DNA of 5,356 bases from the IMG/VR virus record IMGVR_UViG_2537562231_000017; one strand, written 5' to 3'. This document shows, in pieces, positions 119 to 5,356 of the stretch. The position numbers were made by a program, and so were the translations under genes. How positions within the stretch are numbered: position 1 is the stretch's first letter; each line of letters opens with the position of its first letter. This DNA is from a virus. Lineage: Duplodnaviria > Heunggongvirae > Uroviricota > Caudoviricetes. The notes below the pieces were generated by a model. The model had not been told where the DNA came from. It did not search any database and saw only the letters and a list, made by a program, of their open reading frames with translations.

Positions 119-1081
119 TCACCCCCTGAATCCCGGCGGTATTTCAGTGTCCGGTTCAGAAATGTGATTCACGCAACGCTGCGCAGGCGAACGCCCCAGG
201 CGGATAACCAGTTCATCCCATTTTTCCCGGAGTTTTGCCGGACTCATGATGTTTTTTACCCAGAACGAATCCCGCTGGAGACGCCCAAACATTTCACAAA
301 TTTGTCTGTGAGTTCTGCCATCCAGCATCCGCATTGTGCGAACGTCATTGGCCCATGCTGTCCAGTTGGGTTCTTTCGGTCTAGTGATCTCGCCATCATC
401 GCTGGCCGCCTGCTCGTAAAGACTCACGATTCGTCCCCAGATCCACTGTGCGCACACCAAATCTTCCTGACTTCCCCACTGGCGTTTTCTCGCACTGAAC
501 ACAACCGCGTCAGGGTGTCGGGTTAAAAAATCCTGTTCAGCCGTCTGCGGGTCCGGTTGCGAAGCGTCCGGACAAGAAGATCTTTTATCTGACGGATCAG
601 GTTTTAATACTGACGGATCGGGGTCAATCATCGCCCCCCTAATCGGCAGTTTTTTATCAACGGTTGATCCATCAAAATTTGACGGGTCAACCGTTGAGGG
701 GTCAATATTTGACGGGTCAACTGTTAACGGGTCATTTTTTGCCGGGCTAATTTTTCTTTTCGGTTTATATGACTCACGCGCCGCCGCCGCAGCTGCTTCG
801 AGTTTTTCCACATTAAGCCGATAGATATTGCTTACATTACGCCCACCGACCTTACGCTCTTCCTTCGTCAGCCAGCCCTCTTTCGCCAGTTCTGCAATAG
901 CCGATTTCACTGTGGATTCACTTCTTGCACCGATCTGACGCCGGATAGTTTCAATGGCAGGCCATGACACGCCCTCGTCATTGCTGTAGTCTGCAAGACG
1001 GGCCATAACCGCCACCCTGGATAAGATCATGCCGGTGAAGGCGCACCCTTCCCAGACAAGACCATGAAGCTTGCTGCTCAT
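119..1081 (-). CDS. Phage replication initiation protein, O-like, with N-terminal winged-helix/HTH DNA-binding domain
   Basis: 325-aa ORF 119..1096 on minus strand. Preferred start is the ATG at 1081..1079 (MSSKLHGLV...), preceded by GGGGGT with 4-nt spacing; the GTG at 1096 has no comparable SD. N-terminal region (ILSRVAVMARLADYSNDEGVSWPAIETIRRQIGARSESTVKSAIAELAKEGWLTKEE) looks like the HTH of phage replication initiators. The central linker DPLTVDPSNIDPSTVDPSNFDGSTVD is encoded by tandem DNA repeats, as in lambda O where ori lies inside the gene. Confidence 0.7.
   Translation of the reverse strand: MSSKLHGLVWEGCAFTGMILSRVAVMARLADYSNDEGVSWPAIETIRRQIGARSESTVKSAIAELAKEGWLTKEERKVGGRNVSNIYRLNVEKLEAAAAAARESYKPKRKISPAKNDPLTVDPSNIDPSTVDPSNFDGSTVDKKLPIRGAMIDPDPSVLKPDPSDKRSSCPDASQPDPQTAEQDFLTRHPDAVVFSARKRQWGSQEDLVCAQWIWGRIVSLYEQAASDDGEITRPKEPNWTAWANDVRTMRMLDGRTHRQICEMFGRLQRDSFWVKNIMSPAKLREKWDELVIRLGRSPAQRCVNHISEPDTEIPPGFRG
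589..770. repeat. Putative replication origin: iteron array plus adjacent AT-rich tract, embedded in the initiator gene
   Basis: Core TGACGG(A/G)TCA occurs at 590, 611, 680 and 710. About three tandem ~30-bp units at 650-679, 680-709 and 710-739 (e.g. TGACGGGTCAACCGTTGAGGGGTCAATATT / TGACGGGTCAACTGTTAACGGGTCATTTTT). Followed by an AT-rich stretch TCATTTTTTGCCGGGCTAATTTTTCTTTTCGGTTTATAT (732-770). Confidence 0.55.
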
Positions 1082-1103
1082 AAAACCCCCGAACACCGTG
1101 CTT

Positions 1104-1529
1104 TTAGTGCATCACCACAGCATTCCCTGCCGGGCCGCCGCGATTCATCTGGTCATACAAAACAACCGCTGACGCAACAAAATCATCGACATCCTTCACC
1201 AGCCGATCCCTCCGTTCGACGATCTCACGGTAATATTCAGAACTGTGGCTGCGCATACGGGCCACCAGCAAAGGCGGCATCGCCTTTTCGATCGCCGGTA
1301 ACAGAGCCTGCATTTTTTCAACAGCATCAGGGGTGTCTTTATCCAGCCAACGGAAAATTTTCTGGGTATTACGGGCCAGGGCTTCCGGATGGCTGTCGTC
1401 ATACAGTTCCGGGAACGTCATTCCCAGCTCGAAATACGCTTTGGTAATTTTCGCAGCCGGTACTTTTTCGCCGTCCGGATGCGCCCAGGCATTCATTGCC
1501 ATGCGGATGTGTTCATGCTTGATTTTCAT
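1104..1529 (-). CDS. YdaT-family protein (Rac prophage YdaT-like; historically annotated as toxin, possibly a CII-like regulator)
   Basis: 141-aa ORF starting MKIKHEHI..., preceded by GGGGGTGA. Lies directly downstream of the Cro-like gene (17-nt overlap) and upstream of the replication gene, mirroring Rac ydaS-ydaT-replication order. Family assignment is from N-terminal resemblance and synteny as recalled, not from a search. Confidence 0.55.
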   Translation of the reverse strand: MKIKHEHIRMAMNAWAHPDGEKVPAAKITKAYFELGMTFPELYDDSHPEALARNTQKIFRWLDKDTPDAVEKMQALLPAIEKAMPPLLVARMRSHSSEYYREIVERRDRLVKDVDDFVASAVVLYDQMNRGGPAGNAVVMH

Positions 1530-1788
1530 GAATCACCCCCGCCTCTGGTTGTGTGTTAGCCTGATACTCGACAGGTAAGCCGTCGGTTGGGTTGGGATAA
1601 GTACTGCCATCAATCTCGTGCGGAGTTACTATCCAGCCTGTTGCTTCGCACCAGCGTAAAATTTTTTTCCCCGTAAGTTTCGCCCGTCCGGTAATGACAT
1701 GGCTTACCATCCCTTGGGTTACCCCAACAATTTCAGCAAAATGCTTCTGAGTTATACCGGAATGATGCAAATATTCTCCAAGATTCAT
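1513..1788 (-). CDS. Cro/YdaS-like HTH transcriptional regulator
   Basis: 91-aa ORF, start ATG 1788..1786 preceded by GAGGTGA. HTH-like segment ITQKHFAEIVGVTQGMVSHVITGRAKLTGKKILRW. First gene of the leftward operon, divergent from the rightward regulator gene. Confidence 0.65.
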   Translation of the reverse strand: MNLGEYLHHSGITQKHFAEIVGVTQGMVSHVITGRAKLTGKKILRWCEATGWIVTPHEIDGSTYPNPTDGLPVEYQANTQPEAGVIHENQA

Positions 1789-1895
1789 TGTTCACCTCAT
1801 GTGATGTCATCACGATCATTAATAGCATTGTTATTTTTAAAAGTAAATAGCATCACTATTTCAAAGAGATTAATAATCTTATTAGAATTGAAGGT
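1789..1895. promoter_or_regulatory. Divergent promoter/operator region between Cro-like gene and PaaR-like regulator gene
   Basis: 107-bp AT-rich intergenic region between divergent HTH genes. Perfect-armed palindrome GTGATG-T-CATCAC at 1801-1813 next to the cro RBS; extra CATCAC half-site at 1851-1856; second palindrome TAATAA-TC-TTATTA at 1871-1884 just upstream of the rightward gene start. Candidate leftward promoter on minus strand: TTTACT -35, 17-bp spacer, TATTAA -10. Confidence 0.5.
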
Positions 1896-2396
1896 ATGAA
1901 AAGAAAATCCCTGTCAGAGATCGACCTGCAAGCCGCCCAGAGACTGAAAGAAATCTGGACGGCGAAAAAAAATCAACTAGGGTTAACCCAAGAGCGTGCG
2001 GCAGAAATTCTGGGATTTTCGACACAGGGAGCTGTAAGCCATTATCTAAATGGTCAGACACCTTTAAATCTTGAGGCTGTTATCAAGTTCGCAGGGTTGC
2101 TGCAAGTTCCTCCCGAGTCAATCAGACCAGATATGGCCGAGTTGTTACAAATTGTAAGGATGTATCCCCAAGAATCTGGGGAGGACAATGTTGTCACTAT
2201 ATCTGCAGATATGGAACAATCGGAAAACGAACTTCCGTTTAATATAGACCCCATGGAGCGGGATTTGCTCCAGACGTTCAGGGCTTTCCCCAAAGAAGAT
2301 AAAGAGAAAATGCTTAAGGAAATGAAGGAGAAAAAAGAATCAATTGAAGAAATCGTTGCGCGATGGCTAGCTGCGCAAAAGGGTCGTCGCGCCTAA
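1896..2396 (+). CDS. paaR: PaaR-like HTH (XRE-family) transcriptional regulator, first gene of a three-component TA operon; occupies the prophage repressor position
   Basis: 166-aa ORF. N-terminal HTH LGLTQERAAEILGFSTQGAVSHYLNG. Followed 17 nt downstream by the antitoxin gene with an AGGAGG RBS, matching the paaR-paaA-parE three-gene architecture described in E. coli O157:H7 (established knowledge; not verified by search). Confidence 0.7.
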   Translation: MKRKSLSEIDLQAAQRLKEIWTAKKNQLGLTQERAAEILGFSTQGAVSHYLNGQTPLNLEAVIKFAGLLQVPPESIRPDMAELLQIVRMYPQESGEDNVVTISADMEQSENELPFNIDPMERDLLQTFRAFPKEDKEKMLKEMKEKKESIEEIVARWLAAQKGRRA

Positions 2397-2413
2397 TCTG
2401 AGGAGGTAAAAAC

Positions 2414-2605
2414 ATGAGTACAGCCCTTTCCCCGATAATTTCTGAATTTGAAACAGTCGAACAAGAAAACAGCTATAACGAATGGTTGCGAACCAAAGTG
2501 GCAGCAAGCCTCTCAGATCCCCGTCCTGCAATTCCACATGACGAAGTAATGGCTGAAATGGAAAACCTTATTGCTCAATTAGCTGCAACGAACAGGAGTG
2601 AGTAA
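2414..2605 (+). CDS. paaA: PaaA-type antitoxin (partner of ParE toxin)
   Basis: 63-aa ORF MSTALSPIISEFETVEQENSYNEWLRTKVAASLSDPRPAIPHDEV...; the N-terminal ~45 aa closely match PaaA2 antitoxin as I recall it. AGGAGG SD 6-7 nt upstream. Stop overlaps the toxin start (TAATG). Confidence 0.8.
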   Translation: MSTALSPIISEFETVEQENSYNEWLRTKVAASLSDPRPAIPHDEVMAEMENLIAQLAATNRSE

Positions 2606-2895
2606 TGCTGCCCATTTTATGGCTACCTTCTGCACGTGATGATTTACGTCAGATCGTAGCCTATATTGCTAAGGAAAACCCTCCCGCTGCACGTAGACTA
2701 AAAATACGCATTGAAACATCAGTTTTGTCACTTACTGAACACCCTTATCTGTACCCACCGAGCGAAAGAGTTCCAAGTCTTCGTGAGATAGTGACTCATC
2801 CTAACTACATAATACTTTACCGAGTAACAGCATCTAACATCGAGATCGTAAATGTAGTTCACTCACGAAGACAGTATCCAAACAAAACCTGTTAA
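2605..2895 (+). CDS. parE: ParE-family toxin (RelE/ParE superfamily)
   Basis: 96-aa ORF MLPILWLPSARDDLRQIVAYI...EHPYLYPPSERVPSLREIVTHPNYIILYRV...VVHSRRQYP, matching conserved ParE motifs. Translationally coupled to the antitoxin (ATG at 2605 overlaps TAA at 2603-2605), upstream AGGAG. Confidence 0.85.
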   Translation: MLPILWLPSARDDLRQIVAYIAKENPPAARRLKIRIETSVLSLTEHPYLYPPSERVPSLREIVTHPNYIILYRVTASNIEIVNVVHSRRQYPNKTC

Positions 2896-2955: not shown

Positions 2956-2984
2956 TTTACATAATTAAATAGTAGTGGTATTGT
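2956..2984 (+). promoter_or_regulatory. Candidate sigma70 promoter for the ydfABC-dicF-dicB transcript
   Basis: TTTACA (2956-2961), 17-bp spacer, TATTGT (2979-2984), located after the parE terminator and ~180 bp upstream of ydfA. Sequence match only. Confidence 0.3.
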
Positions 2985-3163: not shown

Positions 3164-3319
3164 ATGGATACTATCGATCTTGGCAACAGCGAATCTCTGG
3201 TATGTGGCGTGTTCCCCAACCAGGACGGTACGTTCACCGCGATGACGTATACCAAAAGCAAAACGTTTAAAACCGAAAATGGTGCCCGTCGCTGGCTGGA
3301 AAGAAACTCAGGTGAGTGA
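3164..3319 (+). CDS. ydfA: YdfA-like small prophage protein (Qin prophage ydfA homologue, DUF1391-like)
   Basis: 51-aa product MDTIDLGNSESLVCGVFPNQDGTFTAMTYTKSKTFKTENGARRWLERNSGE from the ATG at 3164, with GAGGT 5 nt upstream. Length and sequence match my recollection of K-12 YdfA. The ORF track's 78-aa version starts at an in-frame ATG at 3083. Confidence 0.7.
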   Translation: MDTIDLGNSESLVCGVFPNQDGTFTAMTYTKSKTFKTENGARRWLERNSGE

Positions 3320-3320
3320 T

Positions 3321-3449
3321 ATGGATTTCGACACAATCATGGAAAAGGCTTACGAAGAATACTTCGAAGGTCTTGCCGAAGGCGAAGAAGCTCTCAGCTT
3401 CAACGAATTTAAACAGGCGCTTTCCAGTTCGGCAAAATCTAACGGCTGA
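3321..3449 (+). CDS. ydfB: YdfB-like small prophage protein (42 aa)
   Basis: Not in the ORF track (too short). Hand translation from ATG 3321 gives MDFDTIMEKAYEEYFEGLAEGEEALSFNEFKQALSSSAKSNG, stop TGA 3447-3449. Starts 1 nt after the ydfA stop, reproducing the K-12 ydfA/ydfB spacing as recalled. Confidence 0.65.
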   Translation: MDFDTIMEKAYEEYFEGLAEGEEALSFNEFKQALSSSAKSNG

Positions 3450-3478
3450 TAAGCGAAACAGCACCGCGAGGAATCAGT

Positions 3479-3697
3479 ATGCAGAAACGAGAACCCGTCA
3501 TCATCGCGCCAGACTATACCGATGATGAACTTTATGAGTGGATGCGCCAGAAAATTAATGCAGCGCAGGATCTGAAATGGGCCAATGAAGCCAGGACTAA
3601 GCAGGCTGAAAATCTGTCCGCTCTGGAGCAGGATATCACCAGGCTGGAAAAAGCAGCGGCATTAAGCATTGCCAGAATGGTTACATACCCACGTTAA
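3479..3697 (+). CDS. ydfC: YdfC-like prophage protein (72 aa)
   Basis: 72-aa ORF MQKREPVIIAPDYTDDELYEWMRQKINAAQDLKWANEARTKQAENLSALEQDITRLEK...; the 29-nt gap after ydfB matches the K-12 Qin arrangement as recalled. Confidence 0.75.
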   Translation: MQKREPVIIAPDYTDDELYEWMRQKINAAQDLKWANEARTKQAENLSALEQDITRLEKAAALSIARMVTYPR

Positions 3698-3719
3698 TAG
3701 CTAACCAACGAGGCTAATA

Positions 3720-4121
3720 ATGGAATTTAAAGATTTACCAATGCCATTCCAGGAAATGGCAGCGAATGTGGTTCGCTCTCAACTGGCGACTCTTGACCTG
3801 AGTACTGTAGAAAAGGAAACCATCGATACTATATCCGGTAACGTGCGTCGTGCCTTTATAGGTCTGTATGAAGAGAAGCGCCTATTCGGCGGACAGAATT
3901 CGCCTGAAAACAAGAATCAAGCAAATGATGAGAAGCTGAAACACATTATCGCCTTACTTTTGGAAGACGCAAAACGTCTACAGCAACTGGAACCAAATGC
4001 AGGCACAGAGGCCCGCATTTGGATTGCCATGAAATCACTCAAATGTGAAAGCAGTGATTATTTCAAAACAACAATTAAAACTACTCAACTTTCGGGAGAG
4101 CTACTGAAGAAATTGCCATAA
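3720..4121 (+). CDS. Hypothetical protein (133 aa), unknown function, in a low-GC segment
   Basis: ATG at 3720 with GAGG SD 6 nt upstream, 23 nt after the ydfC stop and in the operon direction. No recognisable motifs. This region is visibly more AT-rich than the flanking prophage genes (by eye, not computed). Confidence 0.5.
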   Translation: MEFKDLPMPFQEMAANVVRSQLATLDLSTVEKETIDTISGNVRRAFIGLYEEKRLFGGQNSPENKNQANDEKLKHIIALLLEDAKRLQQLEPNAGTEARIWIAMKSLKCESSDYFKTTIKTTQLSGELLKKLP

Positions 4122-4359
4122 GAGCATGGTCTTTCTCTTGTTCTGCAAGATGAGCATTAATACCTGGTATGGTTTTTTCAAATTTATCTATCTGTTGAAT
4201 AACAACTTCGCGGTATACGTTTGTTTTTGTACCACCAAGCGCAGCCGTTAATGCAGAAAGCATATTTAGTATCATATCAGTGCGATATGAAAGAATCCTG
4301 ATAGCTTCATCTTGTTTTTCAATAATAGATTGCAGGGCCTCAATTTGCTTTTTATCCAT
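4081..4359 (-). CDS. Hypothetical protein (92 aa from ATG at 4359), unknown function, predicted largely helical
   Basis: Minus-strand ORF; preferred start ATG 4359..4357 (MDKKQIEALQSIIEKQDEAIRIL...) preceded by a strong AGGAGGGTG SD at ~5-nt spacing. The ORF-track GTG start at 4398 lacks an SD. Convergent with, and overlapping by 41 bp, the 3' end of the 133-aa gene. Confidence 0.5.
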   Translation of the reverse strand: MDKKQIEALQSIIEKQDEAIRILSYRTDMILNMLSALTAALGGTKTNVYREVVIQQIDKFEKTIPGINAHLAEQEKDHALMAISSVALPKVE

Positions 4360-4691
4360 TTCACCCTCCTGAGGGTTGGTAATTAAGGAGTTCTCCACGG
4401 GTCAGGTGGAGTGCGTGCGCCGGACACGGGTGAACATCCGGCACTGACAGTTTACTGAAAGGATATGTCCCTGAAAAGTCAGGGCATAACGCGAAAGCGC
4501 ACGGCGAAATTGGTCTCTCTGTACGGTGTCGTTAAATTTAGTTCGACCGTGCGCTTCCGGTTGTGGCACTCCGCGAAATGGCGCGGCGGTAAGTATGGCG
4601 GGGTTATTCCTTCCCCCGTTGAGGACACCGGGTTGTCAGGTTGACCATACGCTTAAGTGACAACTCCGCTGCAACGCCCTCTGTTATCAAT

Positions 4692-4749
4692 TTTCTGGTG
4701 ACTTTTGGCGGTATCAGTTTTACTCCGTGACTGCTCTGCCGCCCTTTTT
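4692..4749 (+). ncRNA. dicF: DicF small regulatory RNA
   Basis: TTTCTGGTGACTTTTGGCGGTATCAGTTTTACTCCGTGACTGCTCTGCCGCCCTTTTT is near-identical to the E. coli K-12 DicF sequence as I recall it (one apparent substitution), ending in a GC-rich stem plus T-run, located upstream of dicB as in Qin. Confidence 0.85.
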
Positions 4750-4918: not shown

Positions 4919-5035
4919 ATGGAAACGTTATTACCAAACGTTAATACGTCTGAAGGTTGTTTTGAAATTGGTGTCACTATCAGTAACCCTGTATTTACTG
5001 AAGATGCCATTAACAAGAGAGTAAGCGTAAACTGA
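4919..5035 (+). pseudogene. dicB: dicB (cell-division inhibitor) truncated after codon 34 by a mobile-element insertion
   Basis: ATG at 4919 (GAGGA ~8 nt upstream) encodes METLLPNVNTSEGCFEIGVTISNPVFTEDAINKR, matching DicB residues 1-34 (62 aa in K-12, as recalled). The frame then reads VSVN-stop across new sequence starting GTAAGCG at 5021. Confidence 0.8.
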
Positions 5036-5356
5036 CCGCCGTATGTAGCCATCAGACGAGAATTGGTAACTTAGACGCCCATCTGATATAGACGGACATC
5101 TAAGTATGGAATTACAGGACTGGCGAAAAGAACCTCGTAAAAACTATTCGAATGAATTCAAACTTCGTATGGTGGAACTGGCATCACAACCTGGAGCTTG
5201 TGTTGCACAGATTGCACGTGAAAATGGCGTCAATGATAATGTTATTTTCAAATGGCTCAGGCTCTGGCAGAACGAAGGGCGTGTTTCGCGGCGTCTTCCG
5301 GTAACGACCTCTTCTGACACTGGCGTTGAATTATTACCTGTAGAAATAACGCCGGA
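5021..5356 (+). mobile_element. Left end of an insertion sequence (IS66-family-like), partial; continues beyond window
   Basis: DicB homology ends abruptly at 5020/5021. The new sequence starts 5'-GTAAGCG, typical of IS66-family terminal inverted repeats (established knowledge), and an HTH-type transposase accessory ORF begins 85 bp inside. Family assignment is tentative. Confidence 0.5.
5106..5356 (+). CDS. IS transposase accessory protein (TnpA/OrfA-type HTH), partial, 3' end outside window
   Basis: Hand translation from ATG 5106: MELQDWRKEPRKNYSNEFKLRMVELASQPGACVAQIARENGVNDNVIFKWLRLWQNEGRVSRRLPVTTSSDTGVELLPVEITP.... The motif (EFK...V.L....G..V..IARE.GVN.N..FKW) is characteristic of the small HTH first ORF of IS66/IS3-type elements. 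Confidence 0.6.
   Translation, partial: MELQDWRKEPRKNYSNEFKLRMVELASQPGACVAQIARENGVNDNVIFKWLRLWQNEGRVSRRLPVTTSSDTGVELLPVEITP

Follow-up and report, generated by a model that had tools for sequence, protein, structure and literature searches.

A lambda cI-like regulator encoded with PaaA and ParE in the probable immunity region of a lambdoid Escherichia coli prophage

The stretch of viral DNA analysed in this study (the window, 5,356 nt) contains three adjacent genes for a regulator, a PaaA-type antitoxin and a ParE-type toxin, together with a divergent gene block and the ydfA, ydfB and ydfC genes. The features recognised are as follows.

1104-1529, minus strand: ydaT, CII-analogue activator of the establishment promoter (Pfam YdaT_toxin, 2.8e-10; role by analogy with CP-933P, PMC8630535, PMC9986795)
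1513-1788, minus strand: ydaS, Cro-analogue HTH protein (Pfam HTH_3, 9e-6; position and orientation as CP-933P ydaS, PMC8630535)
1519-1536, no strand assigned: YdaT operator-like inverted repeat, TTGATTTTCATGAATCAC, at the ydaS/ydaT junction in the PRE-like region
1821-1835 and 1846-1860, no strand assigned: OR-like pair of candidate operators, AATAGCATTGTTATT and AATAGCATCACTATT, 25 bp centre to centre, kept in the aligned OR regions of related loci
1860-1888, plus strand: PRM-like promoter, TTCAAA-17-TAGAAT (promoter scan), its -10 ending 7 nt before the regulator ATG
1896-2396, plus strand: regulator, open reading frame of 166 aa
2414-2605, plus strand: paaA, antitoxin, open reading frame of 63 aa
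2605-2895, plus strand: parE, toxin, open reading frame of 96 aa
2910-2935, plus strand: intrinsic terminator (scan), stem AACCACC/GGTGGTT, loop TTCG, then TTTTTCTT, closing the regulator-paaA-parE operon
2943-2957 and 2968-2982, plus strand: candidate operators of the OL/PL-like region, AATAGCACTGCTATT (a perfect palindrome) and AATAGTAGTGGTATT, with the 25-bp spacing of the OR pair
2956-2984, plus strand: PL-like promoter, TTTACA-17-TATTGT, flanked and overlapped by the OL operator pair, just 3' of the parE terminator
3164-3319, plus strand: ydfA (Pfam DUF1391, 9e-28; RefSeq annotation of the near-identical locus L001)
3321-3449, plus strand: ydfB (RefSeq annotation of L001)
3479-3697, plus strand: ydfC (RefSeq annotation of L001)

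The regulator, paaA and parE genes share one orientation and are tightly coupled, as the sequence-only reading had described. The TAA stop of the regulator gene (2394-2396) is separated from the paaA ATG at 2414 by a gap of 17 nt, tctgAGGAGGtaaaaac, which carries AGGAGG at 2401-2406, 7 nt 5' of that ATG, and the stop of paaA overlaps the start of parE in TAATG (2603-2607). The regulator, an HTH-type protein, is the first gene, closely linked to paaA-parE, and the terminator scan found no terminator before 2910; the one at that position is kept in a related locus (L004) and has an equivalent in another (L013). The position divergent from a cro-like gene that had been noted earlier was also borne out, with the regulator facing away from ydaS and ydaT. 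The ydaS gene overlaps the start of ydaT by 17 nt, and an O-like replication gene comes after ydaT in the divergent block. Beyond the parE terminator, ydfA, ydfB and ydfC (3164-3697) are the first genes of the PL-driven leftward operon.

The best match in E. coli was a lambdoid prophage adjoining ompW, with an integrase, an excisionase, an exonuclease, dicB, a Q antiterminator and RusA, and a PaaR2-type locus (L003) encodes a YdaT almost identical to that of the window. The window very probably carries the lysis-lysogeny switch, or immunity region, of an E. coli prophage that is lambdoid and of the CP-933P/Qin type. Its dicB is interrupted by an IS66-like element, so the source prophage is at least partly decayed, and a viable phage may no longer be under the control of this switch.

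The assignments of the antitoxin and the toxin were upheld, both proteins clearly belonging to the PaaA2 and ParE2 families by Pfam and PDB comparison. The antitoxin matched Pfam PaaA2 (PF21217) with 77.1 bits (cut-off 27, E 1e-21) and the solved PaaA2 structure (PDB 3zbe_A) at 2e-22, while the toxin matched Pfam ParE_toxin (PF05016) with 65.5 bits (cut-off 23, E 6.6e-18) and ParE2 (PDB 5cw7_B) at 5e-36 over residues 1-92. The closest pair is that of a second O157:H7 copy (L002), with 84% identity for PaaA and 85% for ParE; by elimination, this copy not being PaaR2, it is presumably paaR1-paaA1-parE1 of CP-933M. Identity to PaaA2 and ParE2 is 62% and 65%, respectively. The PaaA2 domain is the sole Pfam domain in the 63-aa PaaA, which has no DNA-binding domain, and transcription of paaA-parE would therefore depend on the prophage switch. 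When compared with diverged alleles, all three genes gave dN/dS values of 0.05-0.18, at synonymous sites near saturation (0.05 for parE against L004), which indicates purifying selection on the regulator, paaA and parE.

A three-gene operon of the paaR-paaA-parE type had also been proposed, and this designation holds for PaaA and ParE. In the regulator, homology to PaaR1 and PaaR2 is confined to the C-terminal ~50 aa and does not extend to the DNA-binding domain. The N-terminal domain did not align with those of PaaR1 and PaaR2, and a PDB search with the regulator at E<=0.01 did not return the PaaR2 N-terminal domain (7nkv), which is present there under the title 'Phage repressor protein CI'. 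Instead, the regulator matched HTH_3 in Pfam at 1e-9 and, by phmmer against the PDB, the N-terminal domain of lambda cI at 1.5e-9, including the N-terminal arm. Identity to this lambda domain is 35-39%, rising to 52% for the corresponding domain of cI of Stx2 phages, and the acidic residues E33 and E37 of the regulator align with lambda E34 and D38. A Foldseek search with the predicted structure gave 3kz3_A with a TM score of 0.93, an rmsd of 1.0 A and 39% identity. In the same AF2 model, helices span residues 8-89, pLDDT falls below 50 at 93-113, and two further helices follow at 119-129 and 133-165. The regulator is hence composed of a lambda-cI-type N-terminal DNA-binding domain, a disordered linker and a PaaR-type C-terminal tail of two helices.

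The tail aligns with those of PaaR1 and PaaR2, and in an alignment of four regulators 20 of the 26 invariant columns lie within the final ~45 residues (L124...A166). At the DNA level, the O157 loci become homologous to the window from about position 2266, within the regulator gene. A Pfam scan of the tail alone (residues 112-166) gave only sub-threshold noise (DUF7557, OpuAC), and the tail fits no described family. Its most likely role is oligomerisation, a property that the monomer model behind its structure cannot reveal. The whole 166-aa protein had no Pfam match to Peptidase_S24 (PF00717), and the C-terminus of the model consists of the two helices only; with no S24 autocleavage domain, a RecA response is not expected.

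Candidate operators were found on both sides of the operon. The 15-bp palindrome AATAGCAnTGCTATT occurs in the window solely as two pairs spaced by 25 bp, and a pattern search of the window gave four sites against 0.26 expected, a number reached in none of 200 shuffles. At OR, site 1 overlaps the -10 of a PR-like promoter (TATTAA, minus strand, 1824-1819, a hexamer read by eye), and site 2 overlaps its -35 (TTTACT, 1847-1842) and abuts the -35 of the PRM-like promoter, these hexamers likewise being read by eye. The PR-like promoter TTTACT-17-TATTAA is weak (8/12 of consensus) and was recognised by eye, by analogy with the PL-like promoter; the promoter scan of the minus strand reported no PR-like promoter. 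A search allowing up to three mismatches for a third operator over the PRM-like promoter gave only the four sites. The stretch 1870-1885 was considered for this role and was not counted, as it forms merely a weak pseudo-palindrome, at best a degenerate operator.

The PRM-like -10 (TTAGAAT or TTAAAAT) lies 7-8 nt from the ATG in five diverged loci, in which the intervening bases vary, and no in-frame start codon lies upstream of the regulator ATG. The regulator mRNA is probably leaderless; PaaR2 and lambda cI are leaderless (PMC8630535). The inverted repeat at the ydaS/ydaT junction has one mismatch from TTGATTN6AATCAA, and no second site of this kind occurs in the window (0.03 expected by chance); the published YdaT site of that sequence sits at the equivalent place in CP-933P (PMC9986795).

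Across related prophages, the operator motif follows the DNA-binding domain rather than the toxin-antitoxin pair. The motif was present at OR and OL in all fetched loci having this N-terminal domain at an identity of at least ~60% (L004, L005-10, L013), whatever their cargo. The OL pair lies downstream of the genes that follow the repressor in L004, L005-7 and L013, and a single site is found there in L008-10. Neither the PaaR1 and PaaR2 loci nor the Salmonella loci contained the AATAGCAnTGCTATT-type motif, and in the PaaR1-type locus OR and OL bear a motif of their own, ACAATAAAAAACTGT. Homology of the N-terminal domain to cI, paired sites at OR and OL, and this co-variation of operator and DNA-binding domain together point to the regulator as the CI-equivalent immunity repressor of the prophage, in agreement with the dual use that had been suggested for it. 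As for a lambda-type CI repressor, the regulator gene diverges from a cro-like and a cII-like gene, and the candidate sites overlap the early promoters at OR as well as at OL.

The slot after the repressor is variable. In related prophages it holds HipA_2 with DUF3037 (matching PADLOC PDC-M66), HigB/HigA in some, and no toxin-antitoxin module in others. As DNA homology starts inside the regulator gene, the tail was considered as a domain for specific interaction with the toxin-antitoxin pair, an idea rejected as the main reading given that the same tail also precedes HigBA, HipA_2+DUF3037 or no such module. Tandem-HTH repressors of 240-255 aa, in which cI-like and PaaR1-like HTH domains occur together, were also observed; the PaaR1-type operator was searched for in their loci and not found. 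A slight preference is given to the view that PaaR1, PaaR2 and the present regulator form one family of non-cleavable lambdoid repressors sharing a ~50-aa two-helix tail (probably for oligomerisation or looping), to which unrelated HTH domains have been joined by swapping or in tandem. The slot reaching to OL/PL would then be a rexAB-like cargo hotspot, taken by paaA-parE, higBA, HipA_2+DUF3037 or nothing, and PaaA-ParE a captured two-gene module that was originally autonomous.

One of the closest described systems is paaR2-paaA2-parE2 of CP-933P/Sp12 in E. coli O157:H7 (Hallez 2010; Jurenas 2021, PMC8630535), which has the same order of O-like gene, ydaT and ydaS diverging from regulator, paaA, parE, terminator, PL-like promoter and ydfA onward. 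Experiments on CP-933P have established PaaR2 as the CI analogue, YdaS as Cro and YdaT as CII, along with the promoter PL933P, and the locus is bistably expressed and addictive (PMC8630535). The dual role of repressor and toxin-antitoxin component is accordingly not new: Jurenas et al. (2021, PMC8630535) demonstrated it in experiments on PaaR2, YdaS and YdaT of CP-933P. The two loci also share an almost identical YdaT with its site at the same place, an antitoxin devoid of a DNA-binding domain and a regulator devoid of an S24 domain (PMC8630535), a leaderless-type regulator start, operators repeated at OR and OL, and the C-terminal ~50 aa of the regulator. They differ in that PaaR2 has 123 aa, starts with MQKKE and carries a DNA-binding domain unrelated at the sequence level; in the published half-site GTTTAGTAA against AATAGCAnTGCTATT in the window; in the divergence of PaaA and ParE noted above; in YdaS, which is another protein; and in having three or four operators per region in CP-933P against two clear ones here. 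The second O157:H7 copy (L002) has the same layout and regulator tail as the window; its regulator, of 133 aa, has another HTH domain and its operator is ACAATAAAAAACTGT.

With the lambda cI-rexA-rexB region, the window shares the cI N-terminal homology, palindromes of 15-17 bp some 24-25 bp apart, a probably leaderless repressor mRNA, and cargo genes lying between OR and OL and co-transcribed with the repressor. The proximal site lies at about -43 from the PRM-like start, and lambda OR2 is centred at -42. In contrast to lambda, the regulator has a 50-aa two-helix tail in place of the S24/LexA-type C-terminal domain, and RecA-mediated cleavage is therefore not expected. Lambda also has three operators per region rather than two clear ones, RexAB rather than a ParE toxin-antitoxin pair as cargo, and Cro and CII rather than the unrelated YdaS and YdaT. 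Qin is not known to carry a toxin-antitoxin pair between dicA and ydfA. This E. coli K-12 prophage (Kim, DicA/DicC) has the leftward ydfA, ydfB, ydfC, DicF RNA and dicB in common with the window, and the repressor occupies the same position (PMC8630535).

As a whole, the locus can with good confidence be explained as an immunity switch, with a CI-equivalent regulator and paaA-parE as its cargo. The regulator would bind the 15-17-bp palindromes (AATAGCAnTGCTATT) through its lambda-cI-like N-terminal domain. At OR (1821-1860) it would shut the rightward promoter of the Cro analogue ydaS and the CII analogue ydaT, and the promoter-proximal OR site is placed where a bound repressor could stimulate the regulator's own, probably leaderless PRM-like promoter. 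At OL (2943-2982) it would silence the ydfABC-dicF-dicB-exo-xis-int operon at its PL-like promoter, and oligomerisation through the tail may give cooperative binding or OL-OR looping over ~1.1 kb. The paaA-parE pair, in the slot held by rexAB in lambda, is coupled in translation and would be read from PRM on one transcript with the repressor, and a YdaT-activated PRE-like promoter probably transcribes the repressor and paaA-parE too. Should the immunity region be lost or replaced, labile PaaA would decay and ParE be freed, so that the region is stabilised by addiction. Repression, bistability, leaderless translation, PaaA lability and addiction are proposed by analogy with the CP-933P experiments; ParE toxicity, neutralisation by PaaA, binding of the regulator to the palindromes and the transcription starts are predicted for the present allele from its sequence.

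The locus is a heteroimmune version of a known switch, with a different repressor specificity in a general arrangement already published for O157:H7, and the general picture from the 2021-2023 publications is unchanged. A third immunity specificity is added to the paaR-paaA-parE prophage switches, and an operator readable from sequence, together with a DNA-binding domain near that of lambda cI, should make it an easier model than PaaR2, including for the role of the tail and for how a repressor that RecA does not cleave keeps, and possibly leaves, lysogeny. In this comparison the toxin-antitoxin pair behaves as cargo that the repressor operon can exchange, with no need for a dedicated regulator, which clarifies a point that the literature had left open.

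It is rather unlikely that paaA-parE serves primarily against phages, as an abortive-infection or superinfection-exclusion system like RexAB whose toxin is set free once phage infection upsets host or prophage gene expression. The pair does replace rexAB at this position in CP-933P (PMC9986795), PaaA2 is degraded by ClpAP and ClpXP (PMC8630535), and the same slot in related prophages holds the PADLOC candidate defence pair PDC-M66. The abortive-infection-like defence raised by the sequence-only reading nevertheless found no support, since a PADLOC scan of the regulator, PaaA and ParE gave no match and neither switch state of CP-933P released ParE2 activity (PMC8630535); any advantage of linking the toxin to the switch is therefore hypothetical. 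A phage-defence phenotype is not reported in PMC8630535 or PMC9986795, and experiments on the paralogue demonstrated post-segregational killing and stabilisation (PMC8630535). An anti-phage role would be compatible with the repressor-cargo explanation, as it bears only on the selective benefit of the cargo.

It is very improbable that the three genes form an autonomous toxin-antitoxin system in which the regulator is a dedicated component (a split antitoxin) controlling its own operon only and not the prophage. PaaA has no DNA-binding domain and some regulator must supply one, and the tail is conserved with paaA-parE at the DNA level from about 2266 onward. Hallez and co-workers in 2010 reportedly found that full repression needs PaaR2 together with the PaaA2-ParE2 complex, which would also favour such a system. 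However, the second operator pair lies over the PL-like promoter, past the operon terminator; the N-terminal domain is a cI homologue and, with its tail, accompanies HigBA, HipA_2+DUF3037 or no toxin-antitoxin genes elsewhere, the OR and OL sites being kept. In Bartonella, Acetobacteraceae and sphingomonads, PaaA-ParE pairs stand alone with no PaaR-type regulator, and PaaR2 has been shown experimentally to repress both PR933P and PL933P (PMC8630535).

That the module is an inactive remnant in a decaying cryptic prophage, with neither the toxin-antitoxin pair nor the switch still working, is hardly credible: dicB is truncated by the IS66-like element, prophages of the CP-933P type are cryptic (PMC8630535) and the whole regulator was found in none of the isolated phages of the phage collection searched, but the three open reading frames are intact, with PaaA and ParE of full length relative to their solved homologues, the dN/dS values are low at nearly saturated synonymous sites, operators, promoters and terminator are kept across diverged loci, and the module is 90-100% identical across 70 complete E. 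coli genomes.

We identify the window as the immunity region of an E. coli lambdoid prophage, and from sequence comparison we conclude that the regulator would serve as its CI-equivalent. Rightward of the regulator-paaA-parE operon lie ydfA, ydfB and ydfC, then the DicF sRNA gene, a truncated dicB and an IS66-like tnpA. The features on which the argument draws are as follows.

119-1096, minus strand, O-like replication gene
1104-1529, minus strand, YdaT-family gene
1513-1788, minus strand, ydaS, a cro-like HTH gene
1821-1835 and 1846-1860, candidate OR-like operator pair, 25 bp apart, in the 107-bp regulator-ydaS spacer
1847-1819, minus strand, PR-like promoter TTTACT-17-TATTAA, read by eye, mirroring the PL-like promoter
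1860-1888, PRM-like promoter TTCAAA-17-TAGAAT (promoter scan), ending 7 nt 5' of the regulator ATG
1896-2396, plus strand, regulator, 166 aa
2414-2605, plus strand, paaA, 63 aa
2605-2895, plus strand, parE, 96 aa
2910-2927 and T run, intrinsic terminator past parE (terminator scan)
2943-2957 and 2968-2982, candidate OL-like operator pair, 25 bp apart, just 3' of the parE terminator
2956-2984, PL-like promoter TTTACA-17-TATTGT (promoter scan), interleaved with the second operator pair
4693-4744, plus strand, DicF antisense sRNA gene (Rfam RF00039, 75.8 bits, full model)

The three open reading frames of the operon occupy exactly the positions and strand that the sequence-only reading had assigned to them. 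Its account of the junctions was likewise accurate: the regulator ends in TAA (2394-2396), the 17-nt spacer before paaA holds AGGAGG (2401-2406, 7 nt 5' of the paaA ATG), and paaA and parE share TAATG (2603-2607), in which the stop of the first and the start of the second overlap. Kinship with PaaA2 and ParE2 was recovered in both Pfam and the PDB, where the antitoxin matched Pfam PaaA2 (1e-21) and the PaaA2 structure 3zbe (2e-22), and the toxin matched ParE_toxin (7e-18) and, over its whole length, ParE2 5cw7_B (5e-36). The regulator matched HTH_3 (1e-9) in a profile search. Judged by dN/dS, which was 0.05-0.18 against diverged alleles with synonymous sites near saturation, all three are real genes under selection.

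Over its first ~90 residues the regulator is truly homologous to the N-terminal domain of lambda cI. A phmmer alignment with lambda cI (1lmb, 1.5e-9) includes the N-terminal arm and pairs the acidic residues E33 and E37 with E34 and D38 of lambda cI; the AlphaFold model fits 3kz3 with a TM of 0.93 and an rmsd of 1.0 A, and in tblastn the domain was 52% identical to its N-terminal counterpart in the annotated cI of inducible Stx2 phages. The whole regulator was found by tblastn in none of the phage records. In the model, five helices (8-89) are followed by a disordered linker (93-113, pLDDT<50) and two further helices (119-129 and 133-165). A Pfam scan found no S24 peptidase domain, and no Pfam family matched the C-terminal tail.

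Four copies of the 15-bp palindrome AATAGCAnTGCTATT were counted in the window, where 0.26 would be expected, and a count of four was reached in none of 200 shuffles. Both candidate OR sites overlap the PR-like promoter. No start codon precedes ATG 1896 in its frame, the sole purine-rich stretch upstream of it (GAAGG) ends 1 nt away, too near for a ribosome-binding site, and in five diverged loci the -10 element and its 7-8-nt distance to the regulator ATG are conserved, the bases between them not. Together these observations point to a leaderless mRNA, a form of transcript demonstrated for paaR2 and lambda cI (PMC8630535). With a transcription start at 1896, the proximal candidate operator would have its centre at about -43. 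Lambda CI activates PRM when bound to OR2, which is at -42 relative to that promoter.

If the palindrome is the operator of the regulator, it should track the DNA-binding domain and not the toxin-antitoxin pair. In the compared loci, listed below, the motif does behave as predicted.

L004: same cI-like domain, then paaA-parE; window-type motif at OR and OL
L005-L007: same cI-like domain, then HipA_2 and DUF3037; motif at OR and OL
L008-L010: same cI-like domain, no toxin-antitoxin pair, Rha/Ash and KilR further on; motif at OR, one site downstream
L013: same cI-like domain, then an unknown 178-aa ORF; motif at OR and OL
L002: PaaR1-type domain, then paaA-parE; motif absent
L003: PaaR2 domain, then paaA-parE; motif absent
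L011-L012 (Salmonella): same type of domain, only 50% identical, then HigB/HigA; motif absent

The distal operator pair (one site in L008-L010) always lies downstream of whatever follows the repressor. The central proposal of the sequence-only reading, that the regulator is also the prophage repressor, is supported by a motif that follows the DNA-binding domain at OR and OL and by the cI-homologous N-terminal domain.

Two of these loci relate the window to the published systems. L003 is of the paaR2-paaA2-parE2 type, since its regulator begins MQKKE and its PaaA is identical to the solved PaaA2. L002, the best match in an O157:H7 Sakai-type genome and the non-PaaR2 copy, is presumably paaR1-paaA1-parE1; the window shares 84% (PaaA) and 85% (ParE) identity with it, compared with 62% and 65% for PaaA2 and ParE2. 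The last ~50 residues (LLQTFRAFPxED..KKES..ARWLAAQKxRRA) are common to all regulators compared, and in alignment the N-terminal DNA-binding domains of the window regulator, the PaaR1-type regulator and PaaR2 are unrelated. L002 has its own operator-like 15-mer, ACAATAAAAAACTGT, in inverted copies in the regulator-ydaS spacer (2655-2718) and once more directly past the parE1 terminator (3689-3728), so that it too has the OR/OL layout. The published PaaR2 half-site is GTTTAGTAA (PMC8630535). These distinct motifs indicate that a single architecture exists in at least three heteroimmune forms.

Three results favour the view that paaA-parE is cargo rather than part of a dedicated three-component system. 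Firstly, the common tail also occurs on repressors whose downstream slot holds other modules or none (L005-L013); one such module is a HipA_2-DUF3037 pair matching PDC-M66, a candidate defence system in PADLOC (A 1.7e-13, B 5e-19). Secondly, among species representatives outside the enterobacteria (Bartonella, Acetobacteraceae, sphingomonads, Rhodobacterales), no PaaR-type regulator was found within 300 bp upstream of PaaA-ParE on the same strand; the upstream gene in the inspected loci was unrelated, or none was co-oriented. Thirdly, the related repressors P0013-P0022 (240-255 aa) combine a cI-like HTH, a second PaaR1-like HTH and the common tail, so the repressor family is modular. Only cI-type operator motifs were found in the tandem-HTH loci L005-L010. 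The CP-933P authors proposed paaA2-parE2 as an insertion into the immunity region (PMC8630535), and it has also been proposed to replace rexAB (PMC9986795).

Several of the fetched loci showed further particulars. In L005 (4787-6360; also L006 and L007), the HipA_2 and DUF3037 proteins fill the slot, with an OL-type pair downstream. In L011 and L012 (4612-5339; Salmonella enterica subsp. diarizonae and a Logan contig), whose repressor belongs to the same family as the window regulator, a HigB toxin and an HTH_3 HigA-like antitoxin replace paaA-parE. The genome contigs L014-L049 (many Bartonella species, Acetobacteraceae, sphingomonads, Rhodobacterales and Burkholderiaceae) encode PaaA-ParE 45-80% identical to those of the window, without a PaaR-type regulator upstream, although their antitoxin has no DNA-binding domain of its own; parE is shortened in several Bartonella copies. 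In the IMG/VR contigs L068 and L083 paaA-parE is intact and the longest regulator ORF is N-terminally shortened to 99 aa; these may be disrupted repressor alleles. The called repressor start in L008-L010 (4001-4768; P0019, P0020) adds 10 residues ahead of MKRKSL, and conservation of the -10 and of the operator spacing points to an internal, leaderless ATG at about 4031 as the true start.

By this scheme the regulator would repress PR (ydaS-ydaT and the replication genes) and PL (ydfABC-dicF-dicB-exo-xis-int), would probably autoregulate its predicted leaderless PRM, and would probably oligomerise through its tail; PaaR2 is octameric in solution (PMC8630535, citing De Bruyn 2019). RecA-mediated autocleavage would be unable to inactivate it. 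The paaA-parE pair would be co-transcribed on the repressor transcript and translationally coupled. By analogy with CP-933P, we infer that the region should be bistable and addictive, guarding the immunity region against loss or replacement.

The idea of the regulator as repressor is not new, having been published with experiments in 2021, followed by the rexAB analogy in 2023; in the PDB the PaaR2 N-terminal domain carries the label 'Phage repressor protein CI'. The window locus is a heteroimmune member of this known paaR-paaA-parE switch type. Its modest additions are a regulator whose sequence shows cI ancestry, candidate operators legible straight from the DNA, and evidence for a modular repressor family defined by a common tail, with an exchangeable cargo slot.

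The YdaT proteins of the window and of the PaaR2-type locus are almost identical. One copy of the published YdaT operator TTGATTN6AATCAA, with one mismatch, was found at 1519-1536 (0.03 expected), on the ydaS stop/ydaT start junction, where the genes overlap by 17 nt. This position matches that of OM and PRE933P at the ydaS/ydaT junction of CP-933P (PMC9986795), and implies a putative YdaT-activated PRE-like promoter reading back toward the regulator-paaA-parE operon.

In the best-matching complete genome the region is flanked on one side by exonuclease, excisionase and integrase genes adjoining ompW, and on the other by RusA, the Q antiterminator and tRNAs. Within the leftward operon the DicF gene has a 133-aa hypothetical gene on one side and dicB on the other, the order also seen in the Qin prophage. 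The truncated dicB (4919-5035) keeps the first 38 of its 62 codons (Pfam DicB positions 1-34) and is followed by the IS66-like element (5036-5356), with its accessory gene tnpA beginning at 5106; the best E. coli matches to the window stop at about 4987-5020, indicating an insertion specific to the source strain. Two convergent hypothetical genes (3720-4121, plus strand, 133 aa; 4081-4398, minus strand, 105 aa) overlap by 41 nt; neither protein had a Pfam match, and both genes are annotated in a near-identical E. coli locus. Among 5426 complete E. coli genomes, the 1-kb module was found at 90-100% identity in 70, at least 80% of it was present in 72, and some homologue occurred in 842.
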